In this document: one piece after another, positions 4,606 through 51,097 of the stretch
Layout: each line of letters begins with the position of its first letter
Numbering within the stretch: the stretch's first letter is position 1
Sequence record: LC494302.1
DNA length: 64,000 bases
Reading direction: 5' to 3' (one strand)
Origin: Escherichia phage SP27
Notes under the pieces: generated by a model
Database searches by the model: none
What the model saw: only the letters and a program-made list of their open reading frames with translations
Told to the model about the DNA's origin: nothing
Made by a program: the position numbers and the translations under genes

Positions 4606-4634
4606 TTGGACAAGAACAGATATTGTGATATAAT
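4606..4634 (+). promoter_or_regulatory. sigma70-like promoter with extended -10
   Basis: TTGGAC-17 nt-TATAAT with TGA just upstream of the -10. Confidence 0.55.
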
Positions 4635-4717
4635 GTTTGTTATCGGCAGATATTAAAATGCAAACCATTCCTCAATGATGAGGGTTTTTCATAAAAAAGA
4701 AATAAAAGGGTATTAAA

Positions 4718-4927
4718 ATGGCTAAAGAAACTAACGCACAAGTACTAGATATCACCGACTTCGACCGCACTGTGAACTACATTCAATTCCAGATTCATCA
4801 AGCAGAAGAAGCTCTAGCAGTATTCCACGGTACTGGTGCAAGGCCAATCCGTTTTGCTCACTTGATTGCATGGAAGAAAAGTCTTCAAGAAGAACTATCT
4901 GAACTGCGTAAAGCAAATCGTAAGTAA
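4718..4927 (+). CDS. hypothetical protein
   Basis: 69-aa ORF between promoter 4606 and terminator 4939. Confidence 0.65.
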   Translation: MAKETNAQVLDITDFDRTVNYIQFQIHQAEEALAVFHGTGARPIRFAHLIAWKKSLQEELSELRKANRK

Positions 4928-8177: not shown

Positions 8178-8513
<336 letters not shown>

Positions 8514-8514
8514 A

Positions 8515-8697
8515 ATGACACACGAAGAATGGATGTCCAAACAGCATAAAGAACATGACTGCTTTGGGAATGGCATTCGTCAGGTACATTATGATATATT
8601 AAGAGATGAAAATCTTTTCAGGTCATATGTTTTGGATACCAGAAAACCCTGGTTTATATGCGAACTGGCATTTAGAAAGTCAAATAATCAAAACTAA
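8515..8697 (+). CDS. MTHEEW-family small protein
   Basis: Tracked ORF trimmed to MTHEEWMSKQ... Confidence 0.65.
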   Translation: MTHEEWMSKQHKEHDCFGNGIRQVHYDILRDENLFRSYVLDTRKPWFICELAFRKSNNQN

Positions 8698-8713
8698 ACA
8701 AGGAATACAAAAA

Positions 8714-8932
8714 ATGGAAACAACTTTATTTGAAGTTATTCAATCATTAAAACCTGAAGATGAGGTTCAAGTACTACTACATGGTTATCGTGTAAAAGGT
8801 ACTGTGGTTTTAGTCAATGATACAACATTGGTTATTACAGAAACAAACCCATATGATAGTAATCAACTTGCCAATATCCATATCGATATCACTGGAATTA
8901 TTGGTGTCGGTGTATCTAAAACACTTGCATAA
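8714..8932 (+). CDS. hypothetical protein
   Basis: Tracked ORF 8606..8932 trimmed to ATG 8714 (METTLFEV) behind AAGGAA. Confidence 0.55.
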   Translation: METTLFEVIQSLKPEDEVQVLLHGYRVKGTVVLVNDTTLVITETNPYDSNQLANIHIDITGIIGVGVSKTLA

Positions 8933-8985
8933 ATCATTAATTCATTATATAATGATTATCACTGGTTCTAGATGAGGATAATATT

Positions 8986-9258
8986 ATGCATTTTGAAAAA
9001 TTCAACGTAAATCGTAACACACGCATTGAAGTTCTTTATGAAACTCAAGACACCATTAGTATTCGTACAAGTAGTGGGGATGTATATCATGACTGTACGA
9101 TTGGCTGGGAACAGGGAAGAACGCGTAGTGCAGTATTTGATAATTATCGCTTTTATCAAGGAGACACTACGATTTGGCCTGAATACGTAGAAGATATTGC
9201 GTTTGAAGATGAACATAAAGATGAATTTATCAAATTTAATCCTCAAACTGAATCATAA
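8986..9258 (+). CDS. hypothetical protein
   Basis: 90-aa ORF, GAGGA SD. Confidence 0.6.
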   Translation: MHFEKFNVNRNTRIEVLYETQDTISIRTSSGDVYHDCTIGWEQGRTRSAVFDNYRFYQGDTTIWPEYVEDIAFEDEHKDEFIKFNPQTES

Positions 9259-10708: not shown

Positions 10709-11473
<765 letters not shown>

Positions 11474-11491
11474 TTCACATGATATAGGGTG

Positions 11492-12161
<670 letters not shown>

Positions 12162-12180
12162 AGAGGTACTTCGAGTATGC

Positions 12181-12304
<124 letters not shown>

Positions 12305-12307
12305 ATA

Positions 12308-12394
<87 letters not shown>

Positions 12395-12449
12395 GACTGC
12401 CAAACAGCTTGAAGTACTTTGTAGTGCTGCACCTATGCCGACACTTGGC

Positions 12450-33192: not shown

Positions 33193-33364
33193 TAATATTC
33201 GTGTTATGCAGCATCCCTACTTACAAATCTTTGATGTGCAGCAGTATATGGAAGGTGATGACCCAAGAACCTATGGTCGTAAGTATGATTACTTCACTGT
33301 AAAGCAGTGTAAAAATATTAACGAAGTACGACAATTAGTTCAAGAACTTCAAAACAAAGGTTGA
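33173..33364 (+). CDS. hypothetical protein
   Basis: Tracked GTG ORF trimmed to ATG 33173 behind AAGGA; stop TGA lies in the TTGAC of the next cassette. Confidence 0.5.
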   Translation: MLIYQSDNIRVMQHPYLQIFDVQQYMEGDDPRTYGRKYDYFTVKQCKNINEVRQLVQELQNKG

Positions 33365-33390
33365 CTTCGGTCAGCCTTTTTTGTTATAAT
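33359..33390 (+). promoter_or_regulatory. fused terminator/early-promoter cassette (-35 inside hairpin)
   Basis: GGTTGAC-TTCG-GTCAGCC, T6, then TATAAT 18 nt after TTGACT. Confidence 0.7.
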
Positions 33391-36594: not shown

Positions 36595-36600
36595 TAAAAA

Positions 36601-36633
36601 GGGTTGACTAAGGTCAGCCCTTTGTTGTATCAT
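36601..36633 (+). promoter_or_regulatory. fused terminator/early-promoter cassette
   Basis: GGGTTGAC-TAAG-GTCAGCCC, TTTGTTG, TATCAT 18 nt after TTGACT. Confidence 0.65.
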
Positions 36634-36839: not shown

Positions 36840-38117
36840 ATGAAATCTATGGAGAGAAATCAAATGCCAAGTAATTTTACTGATAAAAATGGTGGTAACA
36901 TGGCTGGTCACTCTGATAAATGGAGTGAACGCAACCGCCGTCCAAATAGTTATCAAGCAGGTCAAGGTTCACGTGGATCACGTAACCAAGGAACTGGTCT
37001 AGCTGGTAAAGCAAACGCAGAAGCAGGTGAAGTTAAGAGTACTGAGAACATGACTGAGCTAGAAAAGCTACGTTATGTTAATTCATTGGGACTTCTTAAT
37101 GCTACACAAAAACAACGCCTAGCTGATATGGAACGTGAAGAAAAAGAAAAGTCTGCTCCTGCGAAAGAAGAACCAAAACAAGAAGCACCAAAGGCGGTTA
37201 ACCCTGTCAAAGAACTGTCTGATAAGTTAGGTAAGATTTTTGCTAATAAACCACAACTTATCCAAGGTATTGTGAAAGAATTGCAATCTGTACCTAAAGA
37301 AGAATTAAAAGTCAAAGCACAAGCTGTGCTTGATGCAATGAGTGGAAATACCAGTACTGAACCAACTGAAGTATTCAGTACTATAATGCGTGCACTTGAA
37401 GGTACGCAACAAGGTGATGTGCCTGCACAAGAGGAAGTAAGTCTTGAAAGCGTACTTAAAACATTTGATAGTATTGGTAAAGAAGACCGTGCTAATGCTC
37501 AACAAGTTAAGAATGTACTAGCTAAGTTAGAAAACCGTCTGGAAGGTAAAGACGATAAGATTAAATTAGTATCTGATGCAGTTAACGATGCACTTAAATC
37601 TTATGTACAAGGTGAAAAGAGTCGTTTTGTAACTGCAATGGATGCTGCATTCAATACTATGAAAAAGTATGAAGCTGATCATGGTGAGAAGGTTACACGA
37701 GATGGTTATCTGATGCGTGATGATGAAGAAGGTGCAGTAGAACAGAACGATGTTCATTCAGACGAAGAAATTGATGACATGGAAGCTGAACTGTCACAAG
37801 ACCGCCAAATGACTGAAAAATCCCATAACGAACTACAGAAATTAATGCAATGGGTTGCAGATGTTGGTGAAAAAGCTGGTGCTGATAAGAAGAGTATAAA
37901 TCGAAATCTTAGTTGGATTAAAGATAAAGTTGGTAACAACGCTCGTAAACTACAAAAAGCGTGGACTGATGTAGTGAATGGTGCTGTTGATATTGATGTT
38001 GAATCCGGTGAGGCATATGATTATGCATTGACTACACTTGATGACTCTTTCCGTGATTACGAAAATGGAAATGTAACTCCTTGGGAAAAGGACATCATGA
38101 GCAAATACGGTAAATGA
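36840..38117 (+). CDS. large charged hypothetical protein (start may be 36864)
   Basis: 425 aa, K/E/D-rich; N-part paralogous to 36211..36594; antisense ORFs judged spurious. Confidence 0.7.
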   Translation: MKSMERNQMPSNFTDKNGGNMAGHSDKWSERNRRPNSYQAGQGSRGSRNQGTGLAGKANAEAGEVKSTENMTELEKLRYVNSLGLLNATQKQRLADMEREEKEKSAPAKEEPKQEAPKAVNPVKELSDKLGKIFANKPQLIQGIVKELQSVPKEELKVKAQAVLDAMSGNTSTEPTEVFSTIMRALEGTQQGDVPAQEEVSLESVLKTFDSIGKEDRANAQQVKNVLAKLENRLEGKDDKIKLVSDAVNDALKSYVQGEKSRFVTAMDAAFNTMKKYEADHGEKVTRDGYLMRDDEEGAVEQNDVHSDEEIDDMEAELSQDRQMTEKSHNELQKLMQWVADVGEKAGADKKSINRNLSWIKDKVGNNARKLQKAWTDVVNGAVDIDVESGEAYDYALTTLDDSFRDYENGNVTPWEKDIMSKYGK

Positions 38118-38127
38118 TAAAACAAAA

Positions 38128-38159
38128 GGTTGACTTCGGTCAGCCTTTTTTTGTAAATA
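38128..38159 (+). promoter_or_regulatory. fused terminator/promoter cassette (weak -10, TAAATA)
   Basis: GGTTGAC-TTCG-GTCAGCC, T7, then GTAAATAC. Confidence 0.55.
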
Positions 38160-39203: not shown

Positions 39204-39212
39204 TAATAAAAG

Positions 39213-39244
39213 GGTTGACTTCGGTCAGCCTTTTTTGTTATGAT
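39213..39244 (+). promoter_or_regulatory. fused terminator/early-promoter cassette
   Basis: GGTTGAC-TTCG-GTCAGCC, T6, TATGAT 18 nt after TTGACT. Confidence 0.65.
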
Positions 39245-39272
39245 GTTGATATTAACTACAGAGGATAAAGTA

Positions 39273-39914
39273 ATGACTAAGCAAGAAATATTCAAAACTT
39301 TAATTGACATTTTGCGTCCATCAAAAACTCGTTGTGCGATGGAGTTTGATATTCCTTATGCTGAACGCGTAATCTTTCCACAAGTTAAAGCTGCTGGACT
39401 TACTTTGCTTGGAATGGGGATGTACTCTGTAGTAGTTGAACATAAAAACTATCCTGGACGAGCATTTAAAGTAACCACTTCACGCTGGGATGGTTTTCGT
39501 GCTTATGCAAAGTACTGCATTGAAAACGCAGGAACCAAGTTTCTTCCAGTGATCTACAGTGCCAACGAACAAGGAAACTTTGGATGGTATGAGATGGACA
39601 AGTACTATCCTATAATTAAACAAAAAAATAATTATGATGACTTTGTTAGTACTAAAATTGGAGATTTATATTCTTATGCACATGCTGGTCAGTACGCTAC
39701 TTCAGTGAATGATATGCGTGGAAATTCTGAAGAGATTGCTATTGCGACGGTCGCTGCTAACATCATGAAAGAGTTTCACGGGCGTTTTGTACCAGACATT
39801 CATTCAAGTAATGTAATGATGGATAAAGATGGGAATGTATTCATTACTGATCCTCTTTCGTGTGATGTGCGTAGAGAAATACCAATTACTGAAGAAGATC
39901 CAGTTTTTTATTGA
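39273..39914 (+). CDS. protein-kinase-like fold protein (APH/LPS-kinase type)
   Basis: Trimmed to ATG 39273 (downstream of cassette -10); RAFKV lysine, catalytic DIHSSNVMMDKDGNVFITDP resembles D-L-H-x-G-N ... I-D. Confidence 0.6.
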   Translation: MTKQEIFKTLIDILRPSKTRCAMEFDIPYAERVIFPQVKAAGLTLLGMGMYSVVVEHKNYPGRAFKVTTSRWDGFRAYAKYCIENAGTKFLPVIYSANEQGNFGWYEMDKYYPIIKQKNNYDDFVSTKIGDLYSYAHAGQYATSVNDMRGNSEEIAIATVAANIMKEFHGRFVPDIHSSNVMMDKDGNVFITDPLSCDVRREIPITEEDPVFY

Positions 39915-39975: not shown

Positions 39976-40257
39976 ATGCGTTCATTTGAAAACTTAATAG
40001 GTAAGCATCTTTTATCTGAAATTGATGCAGACGTTAAAGAATTATCCAAATCAAAAAGTTACATTCATTTGGATGAACTATTTGTTAAGTACGGTGAGAT
40101 TGGTTTTAAGTCATTATTTGTTTTTACTATGAAAGTACATAGTTTAAAGTACTTCGATTTGAGTGCTAAAGATGGTGAACCGAATCTATATTACATGTAT
40201 TACCTTAAGAACAAAGATGAAGCTAATACATTACTCTCTGAATATATATTGGGGTAA
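39976..40257 (+). CDS. hypothetical protein
   Basis: 93 aa, AAGGA SD. Confidence 0.6.
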   Translation: MRSFENLIGKHLLSEIDADVKELSKSKSYIHLDELFVKYGEIGFKSLFVFTMKVHSLKYFDLSAKDGEPNLYYMYYLKNKDEANTLLSEYILG

Positions 40258-40259
40258 AA

Positions 40260-40598
40260 ATGGAACAATATTTTGAATTAATAAACAAAGTATCATTTTA
40301 TGTAGTATCTTTGGTTTGGGTGTATTATATGTTTTGCTACATTATTGCATTCTTCCGATACACTACTTTATATGAACGTATCTACTATGATGCCCCAATT
40401 TCATTCTTGATGTTTTGTGCATGTACGTGGGGAATATTAGAAGTACTGATATGTGGGTATAGTACTGATGAATTAAATCTGGTATCGGTCTTGACTGGGT
40501 TTTCATTTGTTGTTATGATAGCTGCCGTTCCAGTATGGTTGTTCTTTGGACTAGTTCATCGCATTGATATATGGCGTTCTAATATCCCTGAAAAGTAA
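40260..40598 (+). CDS. small multi-pass membrane protein, family TM-R.N.P (member 1)
   Basis: 112 aa, ~3-4 TM; C-terminus RSNIPEK. Confidence 0.7.
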   Translation: MEQYFELINKVSFYVVSLVWVYYMFCYIIAFFRYTTLYERIYYDAPISFLMFCACTWGILEVLICGYSTDELNLVSVLTGFSFVVMIAAVPVWLFFGLVHRIDIWRSNIPEK

Positions 40599-40607
40599 GG
40601 ATTGGTA

Positions 40608-40949
40608 ATGATTTATTACACTAACATGTTTGCCTATGCTGTTGCTTGCATTTACATTGTTTACTTCTTATTTGGTGGAGTACTGTGCTTCTTTAAGTAC
40701 AAAACGTTGTTCAACCGAATGTACCCAAATCATCCAATTGTAGTTGTACTTTTGATTCTTTCAGTTTCTCAAATAATCGTTGAAACTACAATGGGTATCA
40801 GTAGTGTACATTATAGTTTTGGTACTATAGTAATTATTACTATGCTTATTGCATACATTTTAGTACTTGGATATGGTATCTTTGGTAATATTGGTATGAA
40901 AATGTATCATCGAATTAAAACATTACGTGATAATCTACCGGAGCGTTGA
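40608..40949 (+). CDS. small multi-pass membrane protein, same family (member 2)
   Basis: ATG 40608 behind AAGGAT; C-terminus RDNLPER. Confidence 0.7.
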   Translation: MIYYTNMFAYAVACIYIVYFLFGGVLCFFKYKTLFNRMYPNHPIVVVLLILSVSQIIVETTMGISSVHYSFGTIVIITMLIAYILVLGYGIFGNIGMKMYHRIKTLRDNLPER

Positions 40950-40950
40950 T

Positions 40951-41295
40951 ATGTATAATTTGAACCTAATCTCATATATTATAACAACACTGTTTACATT
41001 CTATGCCTTTGTTGGTATAATCCTACTGTACTTTAAATTTTATAAAGTGTTTAACCGTTTCTATCCTTCAATGGAGAATGAGTTTTTCTTTGTGTTGTAC
41101 GTATGTTACACATTCATGGCTACATGTTTCACTGTAGTCGATGGTGTCATCGGCATTAAAACTGCTGCACCAAATGGTAGTACGCTGGTTGCATTTATTC
41201 TTACCGGATTCCTTGCAACTTATATTGCCTTCATTGCAACATGGTCAGTGGTTGAATTTCTCTTGCGACTACGAAAGAATATGCCGAATCGATAG
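40951..41295 (+). CDS. small multi-pass membrane protein, same family (member 3)
   Basis: ATG 40951 behind GGAG; C-terminus RKNMPNR. Confidence 0.7.
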   Translation: MYNLNLISYIITTLFTFYAFVGIILLYFKFYKVFNRFYPSMENEFFFVLYVCYTFMATCFTVVDGVIGIKTAAPNGSTLVAFILTGFLATYIAFIATWSVVEFLLRLRKNMPNR

Positions 41296-41304
41296 GAGAC
41301 ATAT

Positions 41305-41559
41305 ATGTTTGCATTGCGTAACAAAAACACTAAAGAAATATTATGTTTAGATACCGTATGGGATTGTGCGGGATCAACTACAGTTCTTGAAGAAGGAACT
41401 GGATATTGCGTGTTTGTTGTACATGATAGGAATGAACTCGAATTATTACTTGCTGAGTTCAATGCTGGTGGTAATCCTAACAGTACTGAATACCCTGAGA
41501 TTATCAATCCAGCACCACCAGGCTCTTATGAAATTCTACAACTGTGGGAGTTGAAGTAA
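41305..41559 (+). CDS. hypothetical protein (paralog of 43431)
   Basis: 84 aa, AGGAGA SD; MFALRNKN.. versus MYALYNKE.. Confidence 0.6.
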   Translation: MFALRNKNTKEILCLDTVWDCAGSTTVLEEGTGYCVFVVHDRNELELLLAEFNAGGNPNSTEYPEIINPAPPGSYEILQLWELK

Positions 41560-41939
41560 TGCGTCAAATGCACAAAGTAACCGAGCTAAACAAGCGTCTG
41601 GTTAAACAATCAATGTTCGAGGATAAAGAGTCTTATTATAACTTTAAACGTGCAGTAGAGGCTGCTATCCACATTCAGAAGCTTAAAGAACGTGGTTGTA
41701 TTATTCTGGAAAATGGTTCGGAAGTTGTAACGGATGACTTTAGTGTAGCGTTTGATGTTTCACCTGACGGGACGCTATCAATGCCCCGCTTAGGAACTGG
41801 AAACATGACTGTTTGGGTTGGCTTCACTATGGGGAATGTACCTGGTACTGTGTACGTAGATGATGCGGAATTGAAAGACAGTTTCAAAAACTTATCGTAC
41901 CTTGAACCACAATACGCACATGAAATGAATTTATTTTGA
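41559..41939 (+). CDS. hypothetical protein
   Basis: Trimmed to ATG 41559 (TAATG coupling, GGGAG SD). Confidence 0.6.
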   Translation: MRQMHKVTELNKRLVKQSMFEDKESYYNFKRAVEAAIHIQKLKERGCIILENGSEVVTDDFSVAFDVSPDGTLSMPRLGTGNMTVWVGFTMGNVPGTVYVDDAELKDSFKNLSYLEPQYAHEMNLF

Positions 41940-41940
41940 G

Positions 41941-41998
41941 TTGACAAACACATTCAGTACTGTATAATGTTTATCAAGGGGATGAACTTCTCATCCCC
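41941..41998 (+). promoter_or_regulatory. early promoter with CAGTACTG dyad followed by stem-loop
   Basis: TTGACA-aacacatTCAGTACTG-TATAAT, then GGGGATGA-ACTTC-TCATCCCC. Confidence 0.6.
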
Positions 41999-42015
41999 AC
42001 AATCGAGGAATTGTC

Positions 42016-42570
42016 ATGATTACTTTTAAGAAAACTGCTAACCACATCCATGAAATCTACATTAACGGTCACAAAGCTGGCCTTCTTCGTTTACTCGCCC
42101 ATCACCCTGATGCTACCGTATCTGATAATGAACCTAAAGATTGGCGTGTCTTTTTCTTTGGAAAGTACAGTGATTTTCAAGTATCAAACCTGAAGAACAT
42201 TCGTTCAGTATGCACGTTAACTGAAATTAAAGAAAAGTTAGCACAAGCATTGAAAACTAATCCAGATGGTGTTCTTCCACCTGATAACTTTGTAGAGAAA
42301 GGTTATGCCTTAGCTCATTTCAAAGATGGTACTATTCAATCTATCAGTACTGAATATGAATATCATTGGACTGAGTACTTCACTTATGGTTCGAGTAATA
42401 CATTGATGGATTCACGTAGTAAATTGGAAGAAGTACTGACTCGTATGAATGAACGCGAGCGTCAGTTATATGACAAACCAGAAATGTGGAGTTCAACTTA
42501 CATTGACCGTATTGACTATGTTATTATGACTCCAATCTTTGACACTGCTTACTATGATTCTTTGAAATAA
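42016..42570 (+). CDS. hypothetical protein
   Basis: 184 aa, GAGGAA SD. Confidence 0.65.
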   Translation: MITFKKTANHIHEIYINGHKAGLLRLLAHHPDATVSDNEPKDWRVFFFGKYSDFQVSNLKNIRSVCTLTEIKEKLAQALKTNPDGVLPPDNFVEKGYALAHFKDGTIQSISTEYEYHWTEYFTYGSSNTLMDSRSKLEEVLTRMNERERQLYDKPEMWSSTYIDRIDYVIMTPIFDTAYYDSLK

Positions 42571-42581
42571 GGATAACTTAT

Positions 42582-42758
42582 ATGAAACTACGTACTCGTA
42601 ATCGACTGATGGATGCACTGTACCATGAACAGCTTTCACTGAATGAAGTGAAGCGTCAGTTAATGTACACATATCAGTTTCCCGCTCGCATTGCAAAACA
42701 ACGTGCTAAAGAATTGCTGAAAGAAGCAATAGAGTACTGGGAATCTGATTCGTACTAA
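42582..42758 (+). CDS. 58-aa helical basic protein (possible DNA binder)
   Basis: AAGGATA SD; own translation MKLRTRNRLMDALYHEQLSLNEVKRQL...; function speculative. Confidence 0.5.
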   Translation: MKLRTRNRLMDALYHEQLSLNEVKRQLMYTYQFPARIAKQRAKELLKEAIEYWESDSY

Positions 42759-42797
42759 TATTACGTGATATGTCACGTTAATTAAGTGAGGCGATAA

Positions 42798-43049
42798 ATG
42801 AAAATATTATTAGTTCTAATACTACTAATAGTTTTACCATTTACTTTAGTATCCCCTGGACTTGCATGGAATGTATTTGTGTACTTAGTATGTACTATTG
42901 TAGTAAATGGTATCTTGTTCTTAGTTCTATTCATAAATGGAATAGGACACGGTGGAGGATGGACCAGTACTGCTGATATCGTACATAAAACCACTATGTC
43001 TTTATTTGTAATGTGGAATTTGTTCTGGACTTGGTTTGTGTTCTTCTAA
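42798..43049 (+). CDS. small membrane protein
   Basis: 83 aa, 3 TM helices, GTGAGG SD. Confidence 0.6.
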   Translation: MKILLVLILLIVLPFTLVSPGLAWNVFVYLVCTIVVNGILFLVLFINGIGHGGGWTSTADIVHKTTMSLFVMWNLFWTWFVFF

Positions 43050-43057
43050 TTAAAAAT

Positions 43058-43429
43058 ATGAATATAGATTTGAAAGGTGCAACCCGAACTGTTATCCTCA
43101 TTGGGGAATACGCTATCAAGATTCCAACCTTCAAAAGCTGGAAGTTATTCCTAACTGGAATGATAGCTAACCTCAATGAACGTTCATGGATGCAGTACTC
43201 CAATCGTAGTGATAGTGGTATCTGCCCTACTTTGTGGTCATCATGTACAGGACTAGTAACTGTACAGAAACGTTGTAAGCCAGTTCAACATAGGGGTTTA
43301 TTTTGGGTGGAGTTGTGTGCTTTAGCATTGAATTCAGAGTTAAGTACTGACTTCTTTTATTCAGATGCGAAGCCAGAAAACTTTGGTTATCTGAATGGTA
43401 AGTTAGTTAAACTTGATTATGGAGATTAA
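43058..43429 (+). CDS. minimal protein-kinase-like protein (123 aa)
   Basis: Trimmed to ATG 43058; YAIKIP lysine, catalytic DAKPENFG, DYG (DFG-like) at extreme C-terminus. Confidence 0.6.
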   Translation: MNIDLKGATRTVILIGEYAIKIPTFKSWKLFLTGMIANLNERSWMQYSNRSDSGICPTLWSSCTGLVTVQKRCKPVQHRGLFWVELCALALNSELSTDFFYSDAKPENFGYLNGKLVKLDYGD

Positions 43430-43430
43430 G

Positions 43431-43700
43431 ATGTACGCACTGTATAATAAAGAAAAGAAACGATTTGCTAAGGTTGAAATTTCGATTGATACCTTTGATA
43501 TGTTGGAGTACTGTATTGTGACGGACCTATATGCTAACTTGTATTACGTTCTTGATGACGTATCAGTACTGCAACGATTGCTTGAGAATTCCAAAAGTCA
43601 ATGCCAGGGCATCCATGATGGTTCATCTTATGAAACACCTGAGTGTTCCTACGGCTATCTGGACGGGTATGAGATTGTGAAGTTGGGGATTGTTGAATAA
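43431..43700 (+). CDS. hypothetical protein (paralog of 41305)
   Basis: Trimmed to ATG 43431 behind TGGAGA. Confidence 0.55.
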   Translation: MYALYNKEKKRFAKVEISIDTFDMLEYCIVTDLYANLYYVLDDVSVLQRLLENSKSQCQGIHDGSSYETPECSYGYLDGYEIVKLGIVE

Positions 43701-43706
43701 AGAAAA

Positions 43707-43739
43707 GGGTTGACTACGGTCAGCCCTTTTTGCTATAAT
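43707..43739 (+). promoter_or_regulatory. fused terminator/early-promoter cassette
   Basis: GGGTTGAC-TACG-GTCAGCCC, T5, TATAAT 18 nt after TTGACT. Confidence 0.7.
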
Positions 43740-43767
43740 CATTTCATCGAAACGAGAGGATGAATAC

Positions 43768-44283
43768 ATGACACGCATTAACTTAGTACACGTTAAAGAA
43801 CTTGCTGACCAACATCTGATGGCTGAATATCGTGAACTCCCACGTGTATTTGGTGCTGTACAAAAACACGTTCAAGCACGTAAGCGTGTACGTGATTTCA
43901 AAATTAACAGTACTTATCTGTTAGGTTCAGGTCATGTGACATTCTTTTACGACAAGTTGCTGTACTTACAGAAGCGTCATATCGATATTGTTAACGAATG
44001 TTTGCGTCGTGGTATGAAGATTCAAAACACTGAAGTAAACGACATTAGCGGCTTCCCTGCTGAGTTTTGTAATGACTACGTACCAACGGAGTCAGAGATT
44101 AAAATGTCTCGTGATCGTTTGATTGAGAAGCTCCAGATGAAGCCTACGTGGTATAAGTTTACTGATGTTGAATGTCCACAGTACGTTAAAGATATGCAGA
44201 ACGTAAGTAGTAAGAACGAATCTAGTACTGATATGTTCGACGAAATTGAAGAACAAATCAAAGATGAAATGAATAATTATTAA
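43768..44283 (+). CDS. denV: pyrimidine dimer DNA glycosylase (T4 endonuclease V homolog)
   Basis: [30 protein letters not shown]...KRVRDFKI...[10 protein letters not shown] nearly identical to my recollection of T4 EndoV; extra acidic ~35-aa tail. Confidence 0.93.
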
Positions 44284-44289
44284 AGGAAA

Positions 44290-44310
44290 GGGTTGACTTC
44301 GGTTACACAA
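44290..44310 (+). promoter_or_regulatory. degenerate copy of the hairpin/promoter cassette
   Basis: GGGTTGACTTCGGTTAC: left arm and loop kept, right arm and T-run lost. Confidence 0.35.
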
Positions 44311-44321
44311 AGGAACATAAC

Positions 44322-44516
44322 ATGTTATTAGTATATTCAACGCGTTTCTGGATTTCTTTTATTGTACTATCGCTAATCGGCTTCGGTTTGAGTATACTCT
44401 TTTCGTGGGATGAATTGGGTACATGGTATTATGAAGTCCCGTGGTACATGAAGATAGCTCCTTGTTATGCGGCATTGTTCGTGTCATTCCTTATTGTTGT
44501 CTTCAGCGAGGATTAG
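44322..44516 (+). CDS. small membrane protein
   Basis: 64 aa; PWYMKI segment resembles 46911 member (PWYMKV). Confidence 0.55.
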   Translation: MLLVYSTRFWISFIVLSLIGFGLSILFSWDELGTWYYEVPWYMKIAPCYAALFVSFLIVVFSED

Positions 44517-44567
44517 TTGATGTAGTATGTGCTACACCAAAGTATTTGGATATTTTAGATATAAACA

Positions 44568-44596
44568 TTGACACCTGTTATATCTTTCTGTATTAT
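44568..44596 (+). promoter_or_regulatory. sigma70-like early promoter
   Basis: TTGACA-17 nt-TATTAT. Confidence 0.6.
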
Positions 44597-44622
44597 GTAC
44601 ATCACCAAATGAGGAATACAAC

Positions 44623-44982
44623 ATGGCATCTTTAAGTGAAATCGCAGAATACAACCCACTAACAATCTCAACAATTCAACGTACAAAAACTTTTTATTTC
44701 CGTCCTGCTGATGGATGGAAACGTGGAATGAATGGTGACTATCGAGTACTGGAAGATTCACTAATCGAGCGTATCAACTCTGAACTACAGAAGTATGAAG
44801 GTGTTAAAGTTGTGCGTTCAACTTCTCGTTATTTTGAGTACTACATTGAGTCTTCAACTGTAAATGAAAACTCATCATTATCGGTGGACAACACTGATAT
44901 TCTTCGTAATGCAGTTGGTATGTTATGCAACATTGCAGAAGAAATGGGATTAACTATTAGTACTATGAGTGAGTTGGAATAA
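44623..44982 (+). CDS. hypothetical protein
   Basis: 119 aa, GAGGAA SD. Confidence 0.65.
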   Translation: MASLSEIAEYNPLTISTIQRTKTFYFRPADGWKRGMNGDYRVLEDSLIERINSELQKYEGVKVVRSTSRYFEYYIESSTVNENSSLSVDNTDILRNAVGMLCNIAEEMGLTISTMSELE

Positions 44983-44988
44983 CATAAA

Positions 44989-45021
44989 GGGTTGACTTCG
45001 GTCAGCCCTTTTTGCTATAAT
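44989..45021 (+). promoter_or_regulatory. fused terminator/early-promoter cassette
   Basis: GGGTTGAC-TTCG-GTCAGCCC, T5, TATAAT; almost identical to 43707 copy. Confidence 0.7.
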
Positions 45022-45049
45022 TATTTCATCAACTGAAGAGGGTAAAGAA

Positions 45050-45820
45050 ATGACCAGAGAAGCACGCAGCATTCAAATTCAGAAAAACTTCAACTCCATG
45101 ATGGTTGCTCTTGAGTGTTTGCTCGATGATAGCAGTACTGTAAAAAGTATGGTTGTCAGTGGTGCTCCTGGTGTTGGTAAGACTTACACCTTGTCCCAAC
45201 GTCTCCAGAAGGCTCATGACGCAGCAGAATGGAACGTAGCTACTATCAGTGGTAAGATGACTACACTGGCTCTGTACGAAGTTCTGTACAAGAATCGTCA
45301 CAGCACCAACGTGTTAGTACTGGATGATATGGACAGCATCTTTGATTCTGAAGACGGTATGAACCTGCTCAAAGCTGTTTTGGATAGTGGTAAGCGTACT
45401 GTATCTTATATGACTAGCTCTAAGTACTTGAGCACTAACGGCATTCCTAATAGCTTTGATTTTAATGGTCGCATCGTATTCATTACTAACAAAGATTTAG
45501 CGTTAGATGCTAAAGCTAAAACTAAAATGTCTGCTCATTATGCTGCTCTTATGTCTCGTTCTGTGTACGTGGATTTACAGATTCAGACTAAAAGTGATAT
45601 CATGATTCATATTGAAAATGTAATGACTAAGACTAATATCCTTGCATCTAAAGGTGTTAACAGTAACGGTAGTAAAGCAATTCTGAACTGGATGTTAAAA
45701 CATGAAGATAATCTTCGTGCACCATCCCTGCGTATGCCTTTGTTGATTTCAGCAGTATATAACAACAATCCGTATGATTGGGAAGAACAATGTGAAAACT
45801 TGTTCCTTGAGAAAATCTAA
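45050..45820 (+). CDS. P-loop AAA-type ATPase
   Basis: Walker A GAPGVGKT, Walker B VLVLDDMD; 256 aa. Confidence 0.8.
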   Translation: MTREARSIQIQKNFNSMMVALECLLDDSSTVKSMVVSGAPGVGKTYTLSQRLQKAHDAAEWNVATISGKMTTLALYEVLYKNRHSTNVLVLDDMDSIFDSEDGMNLLKAVLDSGKRTVSYMTSSKYLSTNGIPNSFDFNGRIVFITNKDLALDAKAKTKMSAHYAALMSRSVYVDLQIQTKSDIMIHIENVMTKTNILASKGVNSNGSKAILNWMLKHEDNLRAPSLRMPLLISAVYNNNPYDWEEQCENLFLEKI

Positions 45821-45829
45821 TTACATATG

Positions 45830-45858
45830 TTGACAGTACTACCATAGTGTAGTACTAT
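45830..45858 (+). promoter_or_regulatory. promoter with two AGTACT boxes
   Basis: TTGACA-GTACTaccatagtgtAG-TACTAT. Confidence 0.55.
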
Positions 45859-45887
45859 AACTTAATATTCACCACCGGAGATACGAT

Positions 45888-46229
45888 ATGCTTGAGTTTT
45901 TTAATTCAGATACAATGCTTGGTATCACGCTAATTTACATGTTTGTATTCTTGTTTTATCATTCAATTGTAATTAGTCTTTGGTATTTTAAAAGGAAAGT
46001 TGTTTTTAAATTGTATTCGTATGATAATGTACTCTTAGTAGTATATAGCATTATACAAGGTGGGTTTATTTTATTTGGTGTGATGACATATGTGATTTAC
46101 ATGTTACAAATTGATAATACACCACACATTACACAATATGTTGTGTTTTCAGGACTAATCGTCTGGTTATTGGTGTGTACTCTGTATTTTATTATTAAAG
46201 CTCGTGATAACTTTAAATGGGGATTCTAA
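45888..46229 (+). CDS. small multi-pass membrane protein, TM family (member 4)
   Basis: 113 aa; MLEFFNSDTM.. start near-identical to next gene; WYFKRK after TM1. Confidence 0.7.
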   Translation: MLEFFNSDTMLGITLIYMFVFLFYHSIVISLWYFKRKVVFKLYSYDNVLLVVYSIIQGGFILFGVMTYVIYMLQIDNTPHITQYVVFSGLIVWLLVCTLYFIIKARDNFKWGF

Positions 46230-46567
46230 TGTTAGAATTTTTTAAATCAGATACAATGATTAGTATTACTTTGATTTATCTGTTTGGTTTTTTCTTTTAT
46301 CATGCACTAGTTGTAGTACTATGGTATTTTAAAAAGAAAATTGTTTTTAAACTGTATCCAGTGAGGAATTCATCACTAGTTCTTTACACACTTGTTCAAG
46401 GTTTGTTTGCAATTGTTGGTCTTATGGCACACTTAATTTATTGTGCCAATCCTCACTTGAACTCAATCTCACAATATATTGTATTCTTTGGGTTGTTCAT
46501 TTGGTTAGTTGTATACTTAATCCATCTCATTATTCATGGTAGAGATAAAATTCGCGGAGACTTCTAA
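46229..46567 (+). CDS. small multi-pass membrane protein, TM family (member 5)
   Basis: TAATG coupling; MLEFFKSDTM... Confidence 0.7.
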   Translation: MLEFFKSDTMISITLIYLFGFFFYHALVVVLWYFKKKIVFKLYPVRNSSLVLYTLVQGLFAIVGLMAHLIYCANPHLNSISQYIVFFGLFIWLVVYLIHLIIHGRDKIRGDF

Positions 46568-46914
46568 TGTTTGAAGCTTATCTTGAGTTTTTAAGGAGTA
46601 GTCCAGTTGCACATTCACTTGCAGGGATTATTCTAACAACTTATGTATCATTTTGGGTAGTTATGTTTCTAGGATGGTATTTTAAACGACAATTCTATAA
46701 ACGTAATGGTGAAGATTTTATGAATTCTGTCATTAATCAATCGTTGTTTGCATCAACATTGATTGCATGTATTGTAGCAACACTCACAGGAAAGGTACTA
46801 CCAGCTTTTTCCGCAGTTTACGGCACACTTGGGATGATATGTTTAACTTTTATATTGACCATTAAAATTTGTTGTGTTATGATTGAACTTCGAAATAAGA
46901 TACCGGAGGAATGA
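46567..46914 (+). CDS. small multi-pass membrane protein, TM family (member 6)
   Basis: TAATG coupling; C-terminus LRNKIPEE links both arrays. Confidence 0.7.
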   Translation: MFEAYLEFLRSSPVAHSLAGIILTTYVSFWVVMFLGWYFKRQFYKRNGEDFMNSVINQSLFASTLIACIVATLTGKVLPAFSAVYGTLGMICLTFILTIKICCVMIELRNKIPEE

Positions 46915-47249
46915 TGGAGTACTTTATTGATTTACTGCCGTGGTATATGAAAGTTAGTACCATGTACTATATTATTAGTGCTGGATTCTACTTTCTGATG
47001 TGGTTCTTTAAACGACCAATTTCAGTATTCATCGCTGATAACATGTTGCAATTAAAATTACACGCATGGTTTGGTATGGCGATGATTATGCCTATTATTC
47101 ACTACTCAATGATTAGTAGAGGTTTCCGTTCTAATGGTGAACCAATTGTATTAGTATTCTATTGGGGTTCAACTATTGCATATGTAAGTTTGTTGTTGTT
47201 CCCAGTCGTTCATAAGTTACGTGCTAAAGTTCCTGATGCGAGGTACTAA
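46911..47249 (+). CDS. small multi-pass membrane protein, TM family (member 7)
   Basis: ATGA coupling; C-terminus LRAKVPDARY. Confidence 0.7.
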   Translation: MMEYFIDLLPWYMKVSTMYYIISAGFYFLMWFFKRPISVFIADNMLQLKLHAWFGMAMIMPIIHYSMISRGFRSNGEPIVLVFYWGSTIAYVSLLLFPVVHKLRAKVPDARY

Positions 47250-47563
47250 TGGATATAGTAACATTGATTTACACGTTGTATTCATTCTATTTCATTATGT
47301 GTTGGGTTGGATTTTTATTTGTACTCAAGATGTTTGATTATGTTGAAAAACAGATAAAAGAATTTTGTATTCCTTTTATCGGTTCAACCATTATTAGTGT
47401 TTCTTGTGTGTATTTTTTGGTTTTTGATCCACCAGATAACACTGCAATGATTGACTTGATGTTACTACCAACAACTGTTACTTTTTTATGTAGTCTGATG
47501 CCGCCGATTAGCCGTGGACTAACAGAATTTAGACGCAATCAAAAGCGTAAACGAGGGATGTAA
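47249..47563 (+). CDS. small multi-pass membrane protein, TM family (member 8)
   Basis: TAATG coupling; basic tail RRNQKRKRGM. Confidence 0.65.
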   Translation: MDIVTLIYTLYSFYFIMCWVGFLFVLKMFDYVEKQIKEFCIPFIGSTIISVSCVYFLVFDPPDNTAMIDLMLLPTTVTFLCSLMPPISRGLTEFRRNQKRKRGM

Positions 47564-47931
47564 TGGAAATTGCTCTTATTATCTTAACTGCTATGCTGTT
47601 TATTAGTACTGTGGTTATAATTGGTAAATTCTTTTGTGTATCATTTTTAGAAACGGTATACGATGAAATTGCTGATGATTATGAATTACAAGCCGGATTT
47701 TTCATTACGTATTGGCTTAGTTTATTTTGTCTAGTCATTGCTTGGATTTTACATATCTTTAAATGGGGTATGGTAGACGGTGATCCTATTATGGCAATTA
47801 TTGTTCTAGTGTTTGGTATCCTTGGTGGTGCAGTGCATAATCTAATGGTTATCTGGCAAACTGTTCAATATGTTTTGGTTCCCTATTTCGAAAAGATGCA
47901 CAGTACAATTAAAAAACGTAAACGAGGTTAG
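47563..47931 (+). CDS. small multi-pass membrane protein, TM family (member 9)
   Basis: TAATG coupling; basic tail KKRKRG. Confidence 0.65.
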   Translation: MEIALIILTAMLFISTVVIIGKFFCVSFLETVYDEIADDYELQAGFFITYWLSLFCLVIAWILHIFKWGMVDGDPIMAIIVLVFGILGGAVHNLMVIWQTVQYVLVPYFEKMHSTIKKRKRG

Positions 47932-47932
47932 T

Positions 47933-48295
47933 ATGAACGGGATAGAATTATCTTTCGTTGGTCAATTACTAGTAATGGCGTATACATTTATCTTCTCACT
48001 GAATGCATTCGTGTGCATTGGGAAGTACTTCCATAAGCGACCATTATCAAATATATATGATGTAATCCAAAAGAGATATAGTCCAGCATATACTGTGTTG
48101 GGTACAGTATTCAATTTTGGTTTTATTGTATTAATAATTGGACTGTTCACATCCTCTTTGAATACAATAACCTTCGGTCTTATGATATGTTCATTGGTAT
48201 TAGCCGTAATTATATGTTGTTTAGTACTGCACCTTGTGGTACTATTGTATATAAAGATCTCTGAAATCCACCAACGTTTGGGTATGAGGAAATAA
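47933..48295 (+). CDS. small multi-pass membrane protein, TM family (member 10)
   Basis: Trimmed to ATG 47933 behind GAGG. Confidence 0.65.
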   Translation: MNGIELSFVGQLLVMAYTFIFSLNAFVCIGKYFHKRPLSNIYDVIQKRYSPAYTVLGTVFNFGFIVLIIGLFTSSLNTITFGLMICSLVLAVIICCLVLHLVVLLYIKISEIHQRLGMRK

Positions 48296-48296
48296 T

Positions 48297-48668
48297 ATGA
48301 GTTACCGTGAGATATTTTCCATTATTTCAATTATTATGTTCAGTACTGGAACACTGGTATGGTTATTATACTTCTTCTGTATTAATCCAGTGTATAATAT
48401 GTTATGTAATATTAAATCAAGTGCCGGATATATCACTTTTATGGTCTTTATGGGATATTATTGTCTAAGCATTTTAGGTGTTGTTTTGGTTGTTATATTT
48501 GATGTGGGACCAAATAGTGATGGTATGGAAATACATGAATTAATAACCATGTTTGGATGTATGATACCAACAGCACTACTGTTTGTAGCTACTGGTAGTG
48601 GATTGATAAAATTATATAATTATTTAAAATCCATTCATAATTCCATTCATAATAAGCGTATGTCATAA
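48297..48668 (+). CDS. small multi-pass membrane protein, TM family (member 11)
   Basis: 123 aa, AGGAAA SD. Confidence 0.65.
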   Translation: MSYREIFSIISIIMFSTGTLVWLLYFFCINPVYNMLCNIKSSAGYITFMVFMGYYCLSILGVVLVVIFDVGPNSDGMEIHELITMFGCMIPTALLFVATGSGLIKLYNYLKSIHNSIHNKRMS

Positions 48669-48675
48669 TAAAAAA

Positions 48676-48697
48676 TCCAGTACTATTAAGTACTGGA
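48676..48697 (-). terminator. hairpin acting as minus-strand terminator (A6 on plus = T6 on minus)
   Basis: TCCAGTACT-ATTA-AGTACTGGA; T-run only on minus-strand side. Confidence 0.45.
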
Positions 48698-48710
48698 TGT
48701 ATAAGGAGTT

Positions 48711-49373
48711 ATGATGAAATCAAAATTAGGTTTGTTTTATAAAAACTATTTTGTTAAACAACGTAAATTTATAAAAAAATATTTCTCTGGCGAGAAGTCT
48801 AGTCCTATAATCTTTAAAAGACCAAGTTATAATACTTACTTAGCTGGTGCTAAACAGTCTAAGAAATTTATTACTCTTTTACATAAAAACAAAATTAAAG
48901 CTTCTTATGTTGAAACGAGAAGAAACTCATCAATAACTCCTGGTGATTTTATTGAGTACGGATGTTTCAATATTAAGTACAATGATAATACATACTTTAT
49001 GGATATTGATTGTAATACATCCAATCTTTTTAACATTGTAGTAAATCCATTAAAACAATATAATGTTTATGGTGATTCTATTATCAAATTAATCAAAAAC
49101 AAAGATAGCTTTGATTTTGAAATAAATGTTTTAGATGATAATTTTGACGAAGTACCAGTAAACCCTGAAATCTGTGATATTTTAAACAGTTTAAAAGGTA
49201 GTACCTACACTATATCATCTGATTTAATGTTTCAGTACTCATTAATCCATAAAGATATTGAAAAGTATATTGAATGCTCCAGAATTTTGAATTTTCTCTA
49301 TGATGAATTTAAAAAGAGTTCTAAAATAACTGCATACACTTTGTACAATATTCCTAAAATGGTGAATCTTTAA
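48711..49373 (+). CDS. FQxST-motif family protein
   Basis: 220 aa, AAGGAG SD; motif SSDLMFQYSLIHKD; last plus-strand gene. Confidence 0.65.
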   Translation: MMKSKLGLFYKNYFVKQRKFIKKYFSGEKSSPIIFKRPSYNTYLAGAKQSKKFITLLHKNKIKASYVETRRNSSITPGDFIEYGCFNIKYNDNTYFMDIDCNTSNLFNIVVNPLKQYNVYGDSIIKLIKNKDSFDFEINVLDDNFDEVPVNPEICDILNSLKGSTYTISSDLMFQYSLIHKDIEKYIECSRILNFLYDEFKKSSKITAYTLYNIPKMVNL

Positions 49374-49849: not shown

Positions 49850-51019
49850 CTAAGCAGAAGGCATATCCTTCATCTTAATAAATGAAAATTGTGTACCAGT
49901 ATTTGTGGTTTGATCAGTAAAATATGAATTACTACCAGCCCAGTACAATTCATTATTAACTATACAATATATAACAGAACTCGAACTCTGTGAATACACA
50001 CGACTTATATTTGATGGTTCTACTCCAGTACTGAACTGAACCGAACCCAACTGTGAACTTGGTATCACATCAGTTGGTCTACCTAAACCATTAACACCAG
50101 CCCCACCACCACATGTATATACCCCAGTACTATCAGTTGATATATTAACATAACCATTTCCAGCATTTTCAAATAGTATTTCACTGGGAACAACACCAAA
50201 TCCTGTAAGATCTATTTTCCTGAATGTAGTATAAACCGTAGAACCGCCAACACCTCTTCCACCATAATCATTAGAACCAGCCATATAGATACTATATCCA
50301 GAACTTCCTAAACATAATAACTGTACGTTGTCATATAATATTTGCATAGATATAACGTTATCAGGAATACTCAATACCGTAAAAGTAGTTAAAGAAGAAC
50401 TTCCAATATTACTACCAACCGATGTTCCACATCTGTAGTACTTACCGCCCTTTATATAATGGAATGATGAACCACCTAATTTATGTGCTCCTATTGCACT
50501 TACCTCAGTATCTATGAGAATGGGAGATACAACTTTGTTATTAACACCTAACTCAGATCTACTGTTCATACCGAACCCATATAAACGACCATCTAACATC
50601 AATATTAGTGTACTACCTGATGTACCCGCTGATGTAAATTCTATATTCTTTATCTGTGACACGTCAATACCTACAAATAATGAAGTTACTTCAGTCCAGT
50701 TAACATATGAACCACTAGCCCCAAAATATCCACCCATGTATAGTCCGGCACAATATAACTTATTATCAACCGTCTTTATTAATGTACCGGATACACACGC
50801 CCAAAAATCATCAACTTCATAGGGTACATGTACCCAACCACCTAATACATCACTATCATTCCCTGTTCCTAATTTGTAGTTCGATCCAGAACCACGCATA
50901 TACATATTCCCTGTACTATAAAGTAATCCGACATGTAATTGACTACCATCCAATTTCTTTATTTCGGGAAGAGTTGGTTTAATATTTCCGTACTTTAACA
51001 TTCTTCCAAAAGGTAACAT
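49850..51019 (-). CDS. RCC1-like repeat protein with MLPF tag
   Basis: Trimmed to MLPFGRMLKYGNIKP; blades with GSNYKLGTGN, GMNSRSELGVNN. Confidence 0.8.
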   Translation of the reverse strand: MLPFGRMLKYGNIKPTLPEIKKLDGSQLHVGLLYSTGNMYMRGSGSNYKLGTGNDSDVLGGWVHVPYEVDDFWACVSGTLIKTVDNKLYCAGLYMGGYFGASGSYVNWTEVTSLFVGIDVSQIKNIEFTSAGTSGSTLILMLDGRLYGFGMNSRSELGVNNKVVSPILIDTEVSAIGAHKLGGSSFHYIKGGKYYRCGTSVGSNIGSSSLTTFTVLSIPDNVISMQILYDNVQLLCLGSSGYSIYMAGSNDYGGRGVGGSTVYTTFRKIDLTGFGVVPSEILFENAGNGYVNISTDSTGVYTCGGGAGVNGLGRPTDVIPSSQLGSVQFSTGVEPSNISRVYSQSSSSVIYCIVNNELYWAGSNSYFTDQTTNTGTQFSFIKMKDMPSA

Positions 51020-51097
51020 AATTCCTCCTTTATTCATTATACTATATTTAATACAAATAAGAAAGCCAGTACAAAGTACTGGCATAGTTTTATAGTA
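51020..51097 (-). promoter_or_regulatory. array cassette (hairpin terminator + late-type promoter + SD)
   Basis: Minus: GCCAGTAC-TTT-GTACTGGC, TTTCTTATTTGTATTAAATATAGTATAATGAATAAAGGAGGAATT-ATG. Confidence 0.7.

Follow-up and report, generated by a model that had tools for sequence, protein, structure and literature searches.

Two gene arrays of an Asteriusvirus genome encode a family of predicted three-pass membrane proteins confined to RaK2-like jumbo phages

Candidates for phage therapy include the RaK2-like jumbo phages, whose genes are for the most part without known function. Behind a NrdC.10-like ATPase gene, several of their genomes carry short genes for "putative membrane proteins" (GAP32_522/523/525-527, CBB_539-545, Serratia BF gp384-389 and RaK2 ORF309-316). 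The records of GAP32, BF, CBB and Kaldavass already call the genes membrane proteins, with GAP32 adding "3 transmembrane domains" (TMHMM/Phobius), and CBB_539/540/541/543 have been given as BLASTP paralogues (PMC5259590 Table S1). Here we describe eleven genes in a 64,000-nucleotide stretch of Escherichia phage SP27 (sequence record LC494302.1), referred to below as the window. They form two arrays, a trio and an octet, and their products belong to the same family as the GAP32, CBB, BF and RaK2 proteins, which are direct orthologues or paralogues encoded at the identical position behind the ATPase gene.

Earlier treatments differ from ours in taking these proteins as separate hypothetical proteins, with the Asteriusvirus members, the trio included, labelled plainly "hypothetical protein"; we found in the literature and sequence records no prior unifying family, topology, synteny or evolutionary analysis, and no function. 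What is new here is the union of all members, including the Asteriusvirus trio, in one family, together with its motifs and predicted topology, the double use of codons for C-terminal tails and ribosome-binding sites, the positional orthology and turnover of the genes, and their relation, or lack of one, to the NrdC.10 ATPase. What emerges is an uncharacterised but well-delimited set of paralogues, such as jumbo phages commonly carry, and it demonstrates no new mechanism. A first-pass annotation made from the DNA alone had called the arrangement unusual, which is an overstatement given that about 10% of RaK2 genes are reported to be paralogues (PMC3622015) and that the three-helix annotation in GAP32 and a partial paralogue list for CBB (PMC5259590) already existed.

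Positions 40000-49000 of the window are 96-98% identical by megablast to Escherichia phages vB_EcoM_G17, Sharanji, UB, 121Q, PBECO4 and phAPEC6. By sequence, the source phage is an Asteriusvirus, of the RaK2-like jumbo myovirus group with genomes of about 350 kb, and is about 98% identical to G17. All eleven open reading frames (ORFs) claimed by the first-pass annotation are present on the plus strand at the expected positions. They are given here with product lengths in amino acids (aa), transmembrane (TM) helices and, for the trio, the ratio of nonsynonymous to synonymous substitution rates (dN/dS).

40260..40598, plus strand: family member 1, 112 aa, 3 TM, tail RSNIPEK; dN/dS 0.20
40608..40949, plus strand: family member 2, 113 aa, 3 TM, tail RDNLPER; dN/dS 0.14
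40951..41295, plus strand: family member 3, 114 aa, 3 TM, tail RKNMPNR; dN/dS 0.22
45888..46229, plus strand: family member 4, 113 aa; 51% identical to member 5
46229..46567, plus strand: family member 5, 112 aa
46567..46914, plus strand: family member 6, 115 aa, tail RNKIPEE; hub of the profile links
46914..47249, plus strand: family member 7, 111 aa (112 aa if the start is 46911)
47249..47563, plus strand: family member 8, 104 aa, tail RRNQKRKRGM
47563..47931, plus strand: family member 9, 122 aa, tail KKRKRG
47933..48295, plus strand: family member 10, 120 aa
48297..48668, plus strand: family member 11, 123 aa; last gene of its unit

Every gene of both arrays is a "hypothetical protein" in the G17 annotation. 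A purine motif resembling a Shine-Dalgarno (SD) sequence precedes the start by 7-11 nucleotides (nt) in 11 of 11 ORFs; for member 7, G17 uses the second ATG (46914), which suits the SD spacing better. The description of two coupled arrays is borne out. Octet genes are joined by 1-nt overlaps (TAATG) and one 4-nt overlap (ATGA), with 1-nt gaps at two junctions, and the trio genes are separated by 9 nt and 1 nt. The octet sits, as had been noted, directly downstream of an AAA-type ATPase gene (45050-45820), whose product is an AAA+ protein. The trio lies 4.6 kb from the octet, in a separate transcription unit.

Pairwise BLAST was significant solely within the trio (E values of 1e-9 to 1e-5) and between members 4 and 5, and the PHROGs database places the eleven proteins in eight different families. 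Because plain BLAST and PHROGs split the members in this way, the claim of a single family required profile methods with controls for hydrophobic composition. Homologous loci from G17, Turkey5, RaK2, GAP32, XbC2, Serratia BF, CBB, Hallingskeid, Munch, EJP2, Kaldavass, KP13-7 and ph0011 were used, and the sequence set for the family model comprised 81 members. Starting from the trio alone, an iterated hidden Markov model (HMM) picked up each of the eleven window proteins with a score above that of the best decoy, whether reversed or shuffled (16.6 bits). In hhalign profile-profile comparisons of orthogroups, 506 reversed-profile comparisons set a control ceiling of 26.2, and every link in the chain that connects the family scored 29-67: 67 from member 3 to members 1 and 2, 29 from the trio to members 4 and 5, 32 from that pair to member 6, 50 from member 6 to member 7 and 29 from member 6 to member 9, which in turn reached 55 to member 10, 42 to member 11 and 30 to member 8. 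HMMs built with each orthogroup left out gave the members 18.8-51.8 bits, as against 11.5-15.6 bits for the best reversed family decoy; member 7 was the weakest in this test, at 18.8 bits, yet has the hhalign score of 50 to member 6. A six-frame scan of the entire 64 kb with the 81-sequence model returned exactly eleven family ORFs. Mutual alignment by profile methods and a family HMM, a check named beforehand in the first-pass annotation, therefore came out above the reversed-sequence controls. The eleven proteins do form one family, whose two halves are held together by links that are modest but exceed the controls.

Other small proteins of the region were considered as relatives and rejected. 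The first-pass annotation had linked ORF 44322 to member 7 through a PWYMK segment; the match exists, but 13% of shuffles also give a shared 5-mer, which puts it at chance level, and the six-frame scan of the window gave no match of ORF 44322 to the family HMM. GAP32, CBB and BF have a second AAA gene that is preceded by a gene for a protein with three TM helices (GAP32_509 type); this protein reached at most 22 by hhalign, below the control maximum. The other small TM ORFs of the region showed no connection to the family in the same hhalign test, and ORF 42798, which encodes two TM helices, was excluded on the same ground. This last ORF (42798-43049, plus strand, 83 aa) is 95% identical in Turkey5, with dN/dS 0.13, whereas the three-helix family members are merely 28-52% identical there. 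It is far more constrained than the family, has no kinship with it, and has a single hhalign link, to RaK2 ORF298 (34).

Searches of wider scope show a family confined to RaK2-like phages. When 5.8 billion proteins were searched by word index, an 11-sequence and an 81-sequence profile both found close RaK2-like relatives only. An exhaustive HMM search of 1.84 billion cluster representatives returned 59 hits, of which one, P0049, was rejected as spurious (a repetitive, eukaryote-like sequence of 1437 aa with 15 stretches); the remainder are 56-141 aa long, mostly 99-130. By tblastn with one member, at E<=1, Escherichia, Klebsiella, Salmonella and Erwinia jumbo phages were the only matches. Relatives in phage phi92, suggested by the notes "Phi92_gp231/233" in the ph0011 record, were likewise rejected, as tblastn at E<=1 found none outside RaK2-like phages. 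In PHROGs the family occupies at least 11 separate clusters, three of them labelled "membrane protein" (16874, 13405, 19792); others holding members include 19285, 19454, 19046, 27396, 33258, 26405 and 27618. Pfam searches with the 11 members, and then with all 81, gave no recurrent family, only scattered sub-threshold hits to unrelated TM families. A Foldseek search with the AlphaFold2 (AF2) model of member 6 found nothing in PDB (best E=9.3) and, in BFVD, only its own family.

The first-pass annotation predicted three to four TM helices. The proteins are indeed multi-pass, but the count is three, in 76 of the 81 family members; window proteins are 104-123 aa long. Lysine plus arginine residues average 0.2 in the N-terminus, 2.6 in loop1, 0.7 in loop2 and 4.9 in the C-terminal tail across the family, and by the positive-inside rule this distribution predicts a periplasmic N-terminus and a cytoplasmic C-terminus. 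From these features we infer insertion in the inner membrane with N-out/C-in topology. The AF2 model of member 6 (predicted local distance difference test, pLDDT, 72.6) has helices at residues 2-11, 13-38, 42-53, 55-74 and 82-111, consistent with three TM segments. An aromatic triad, [W/Y][F/L/Y]F, is conserved where TM1 ends on the cytoplasmic side, as are a second Tyr/Phe about six residues past it and, in the tail, an Arg/His followed by a Lys/Arg. The tail motif R.N[ILM]P[EN][KR], said in the first-pass annotation to occur often, is found in 5 of the 11 proteins; the remaining members have KRKRG-like tails instead. The final codons commonly serve in addition as the SD for the cistron that follows (CCGGAG encoding Pro-Glu, CGAGG encoding Arg-Gly), at 46 of 55 tightly coupled junctions family-wide, so that the extreme tail is under dual constraint. 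Array-terminal members retain basic tails as well, which makes the basic tail a property of the protein also.

Beyond this architecture, little is fixed in sequence. Mean column identity in the family alignment is 16%, with zero invariant columns, and the alignment shows no conserved polar or charged residue inside the TM helices. Conservation is lowest in TM2, the periplasmic loop2 and TM3, while the cytoplasm-facing loop1 and C-terminal tail are better kept. Sequence constraint this low, a conserved interfacial aromatic belt with an amphipathic basic tail, and many copies under strong promoters (see below) are all compatible with remodelling or conditioning of the membrane, in which early insertion of three-pass proteins in bulk would alter permeability, proton motive force, curvature or lipid domains for the long jumbo-phage cycle, with sequence of little consequence apart from the hydrophobic architecture. 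We judge this improbable, because the paralogues are kept as positional orthologues over long divergence with dN/dS of 0.13-0.33, a combination that argues for sequence-specific constraint on each copy and not for mere dosage.

The positional orthology is seen most clearly among the window, Turkey5 and RaK2, whose arrays are collinear position by position apart from local duplications or losses (45888/46229 in the window, 10869/11189 in Turkey5, 11207/11570 in RaK2). Turnover also occurs between close relatives, the presence of both 45888 and 46229 varying among phages about 97-99% identical: phAPEC6, slurp01, E9.1 and PBECO4, which otherwise match at 96-97%, carry only one gene of the pair. 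Identity to the RaK2 counterparts is 20-39% for the members, 70% for the ATPase and 82% for DenV, and members are retained as orthologues across genera whose ATPases are 47-70% identical. Since the paralogues are only 13-24% identical to one another and are positionally orthologous between genera, they are old and do not reflect recent dosage amplification; "massive tandem amplification", as the first-pass annotation had it, misdescribes the arrays. The comparisons show old paralogues with copies gained and lost locally. In CBB, one member is split into ORFs of 62 and 53 aa (CBB_540/541, CBB locus 11111-11463), an apparent pseudogenisation which shows that copies can decay. In Mimasvirus and Eneladusvirus the array is interrupted by a gene for a soluble protein of about 255 aa (GAP32_524; GAP32 locus 11479-12243), with orthologues in CBB, BF, XbC2 and Kaldavass and no Pfam match. 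The idea that GAP32_524 is a second ATPase, and hence that the ATPase and array were duplicated as a unit, was rejected (BLASTP E=1.8, and again no Pfam match).

Compared with ph0011, all eleven genes have dN/dS of 0.13-0.33, at synonymous divergence (dS) of 0.2-1.3, the ratio being slightly higher than in flanking genes (0.09-0.19). These estimates show purifying selection on every copy. They bear on the notion that the genes are non-functional, being AT-rich hydrophobic frames or decaying duplicates, which could appeal to the lack of any database function and to the very low sequence conservation among paralogues. With 11 of 11 ORFs intact and equipped with an SD, orthologues retained across genera, and CBB_540/541 at hand to show what actual decay looks like, that notion is effectively refuted.

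Ahead of the octet lies the ATPase gene.

45050..45820, plus strand: NrdC.10-type AAA+ ATPase, short form; Walker A GAPGVGKT, Walker B VLVLDD; PHROG 1250

Its product matches the profile of PHROG 1250 (the T4 NrdC.10 family), has both Walker motifs and shows the AAA+ two-domain fold; the AF2 model (pLDDT 93.7) is confidently of the ring-forming type. Since the match covers profile positions 77-326 only, the protein is without the soluble N-terminal domain, about 76 aa long, of T4 NrdC.10. The two proteins are about 38% identical over the AAA+ core, Walker A and B included, and both are encoded near denV among early accessory genes. They differ in that the T4/RB3 protein has 323 aa, with the N-terminal domain, and in that no membrane-protein genes follow it in T4-type phages.

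Co-occurrence with the ATPase, another check named beforehand, held throughout: an array of 4-11 members follows the ATPase gene in 13 of 13 RaK2-like phage loci examined, those of G17, ph0011 and phAPEC6 included, the extremes being Munch with 4 and Hallingskeid with 10-11. The ATPase stop and the first-member start often overlap or lie 1-2 nt apart. Such constancy raises the possibility that the proteins assemble in the inner membrane, as subunits or exchangeable modules of a hetero-oligomer that cooperates with the NrdC.10-type ATPase, or anchors it, through the basic tails and acts as a platform, translocator or channel. Stop/start overlaps that favour equimolar synthesis, collinear positional orthology among Asteriusvirus, Turkey5 and RaK2, better conservation of the cytoplasm-facing loop1 and C-terminal tail than of TM2, loop2 and TM3, and the confident ring-type fold of the ATPase are all in keeping with such an assembly. 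Several observations count against it. Copy number per array varies from 4 to 11, the trio stands 4.6 kb away in another transcription unit, and the TM helices offer no conserved polar or charged residue to line a pore.

The ATPase itself also behaves independently. Its family extends to about 1,300 phage records by tblastn, and homologues without an array occur in T4, RB3, PA5oct, BUDD and two metagenomic phages, the latter two with the short form. Asteriusvirus phages have one or the other of two ATPase alleles, which are about 59% identical; carriers of the allele not found in the window include ph0011 (locus 8448-9221), CRJP21, WPEC3, UE-S1 and JNE01. In CRJP21, member 5 (46229) is 99% identical to that of the window and the ATPase 59%; in ph0011 the ATPase has 59% identity and dS 2.6, as against 73-88% and dS 0.2-1.3 for the array members. 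An ATPase of about 59% identity (dS 2.6) amid flanking genes of 73-99% points to allelic replacement by recombination. Alleles thus swap while the array stays unchanged, and together with the wide occurrence of the ATPase family without such partners this weakens the link between the two. Physical linkage of ATPase and array is conserved across these genomes, and no co-evolution is evident. On balance we regard the hetero-oligomeric assembly as rather unlikely, although it is the strongest rival of the reading favoured below. Its more specific form, in which interchangeable subunits would recruit the ATPase to the membrane by their basic tails as a translocation or remodelling machine specific to RaK2-like phages, we consider quite unlikely.

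The arrays fall into transcription units delimited by a repeated 27-nt terminator-promoter cassette, AAGGGTTGACTTCGGTCAGCCCTTTTT, of which a repeat scan finds six copies on the plus strand, none being expected by chance. In this cassette a hairpin encloses the -35 hexamer and is followed by an extended -10 element (TGcTATAAT).

33356-33382, 36599-36625, 38125-38151, 39210-39236, 43705-43731 and 44987-45013, plus strand: cassette copies
39210..39244, plus strand: cassette heading the unit of kinase and trio, hairpin GGGTTGACTTCGGTCAGCC with -35 TTGACT, T-run and TATGAT
39240..39914, plus strand: T7 gp0.7-like protein kinase gene, which opens the trio-containing unit (phrog_15752, E=1.2e-98; annotated so in G17 and phAPEC6)
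44987..45021, plus strand: cassette AAGGGTTGACTTCGGTCAGCCCTTTTTGCTATAAT heading the unit of ATPase and octet; G17 annotates a terminator here
45830..45858, plus strand: promoter-like TTGACA-17-TACTAT between the ATPase gene and the first octet gene, from sequence only
48675..48698, no strand assigned: hairpin ATCCAGTACT-ATTA-AGTACTGGAT closing the octet unit; annotated as a terminator in G17, with a T-run on the minus strand only

The trio accordingly stands in a kinase-headed unit and the octet in an ATPase-headed unit, and annotated terminators flank the ATPase and array in both G17 and Munch. The promoter-like site at 45830-45858 has in its spacer a perfect 7-bp inverted repeat, GTACTAC/GTAGTAC, that could be an operator or an RNA hairpin; the gap between ATPase and array is missing in most other genera. 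Read on the minus strand, the cassette produces a recurring spurious peptide, ADRSQPF, in several ORFs. Promoters this close to the sigma-70 consensus suggest early transcription by the host polymerase, and both arrays stand in sigma-70-type units that are probably early. The phAPEC6 orthologues are gp012c-017c and gp028c-029c, and the part of the phAPEC6 virion-proteome table consulted, which passes directly from gp010 to gp035c, lists no family orthologue; absence from that part of the table points to non-structural proteins, and we infer this status for the family.

The early-type promoters bear also on a lysis function. Class I holins of the lambda S type are about 105 aa long and cross the membrane three times, N-out/C-in, with a charged C-terminus in the cytoplasm, and the present proteins, with about 105-125 aa, three TM helices, predicted N-out/C-in topology and a basic cytoplasmic C-terminus, fit that architecture. 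They could on this account be holin- or antiholin-like proteins that time lysis. They differ from class I holins in showing no homology to them (none of the 81 members matched a Pfam or PHROG holin family), in numbering eleven copies, and in being encoded in sigma-70 early-type units in an accessory region with the gp0.7-like host-takeover kinase, DenV and the ATPase. No endolysin or spanin was found among the neighbouring genes by annotation or PHROG match, and hence no lysis cassette stands nearby. A role in lysis timing is very improbable.

The reading we favour, tentatively, is that the arrays encode a diversified, early, envelope-directed accessory set for superinfection exclusion or for neutralising membrane-bound defence. 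It draws on the fast divergence of the members, the birth and death of their genes, the concentration of variability in the periplasm-facing hairpin and the independence from the ATPase allele. Together with copy numbers of 4-11 per array, the inconstant 45888/46229 pair and the restriction to one phage clade, this evolution resembles an arms race. The genes would be transcribed early by host RNA polymerase and their products would enter the inner membrane, where the diversified TM2-loop2-TM3 hairpin of each paralogue would engage a membrane target of its own. That target might be the route by which competing phages enter, or else an effector of host defence or abortive infection that sits in the membrane. 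The arrays would then be a diversified exclusion or anti-defence set and not a single machine, and the adjacent ATPase may have only the operon in common with them.

A precedent for this way of working, offered as a lead, is provided by T4 Imm-type superinfection-exclusion proteins, which are small, early, non-structural inner-membrane proteins with 2-3 TM helices. Imm is a single-copy gene, in contrast to the arrays here, and there is no sequence relationship: no family member matched the Pfam family Imm_superinfect or the corresponding PHROG. A "superinfection immunity protein" of Erwinia phage Hallingskeid (locus 4634-4909) gave no match to the family HMM either.

Several points weigh against the exclusion or anti-defence proposal. 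No homology ties any member to either activity. The early timing is read from promoter consensus alone. With dN/dS below 1 everywhere, there is no direct signal of positive selection. Subunits of a complex would fit equally well with the conserved order of the genes, their one-to-one orthologues in different genera and the stop/start overlaps of 1 nt, and in every RaK2-like genus examined the array stays next to the ATPase gene, the stop and start codons often overlapping or lying 1-2 nt apart. A literature search found no transcriptome for RaK2-like genera, and for nrdC.10, phAPEC6 and the RaK2 paralogues it found no functional or expression data; a preprint on the EPI vesicle of PhiKZ proved to be unrelated.

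Merging at least 11 "hypothetical" or "membrane protein" clusters yields a family with a defined predicted topology, motifs, genomic position and birth-and-death evolution. It amounts to a compact gene set of 4-12 per phage, probably early and probably acting on the host envelope. If the exclusion or anti-defence proposal is true, the set would have a bearing on host range and on competition among phages in therapeutic cocktails; if instead the proteins cooperate with the ATPase, they would give the first functional clue to the widespread NrdC.10 family.

Several features of the surroundings were noted along the way. At 49850-51085 on the minus strand, and continuing further downstream on that strand, begins an array of genes for RCC1-repeat proteins, labelled either "regulator of chromosome condensation" or "DNA condensation protein". 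These make up another paralogue family, larger than the present one, and several of its members are in the phAPEC6 virion proteome (gp003-gp010). The GC skew changes sign at about 50 kb. At 36840-38117 (plus strand), a 425-aa protein is the orthologue of phAPEC6 virion protein gp035c, labelled "chromosome segregation protein". The motif SDKWSERNRRPNSYQAGQGSRGSRNQG in its N-terminal part is found again, nearly identical, in a protein of 174 aa encoded on a metagenomic phage contig (7276-7800) that is unrelated. Between the cassette and the ATPase gene, G17 carries two additional genes (G17 locus 11049-12396; one of 79 aa and one of 372 aa "similar to RaK2_00499") that are absent from the window (about 45021-45050), and phAPEC6 has another insert there, gp019c ("exonuclease ABC C subunit") and gp020c. 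From these comparisons the interval appears to be an insertion-prone spot.

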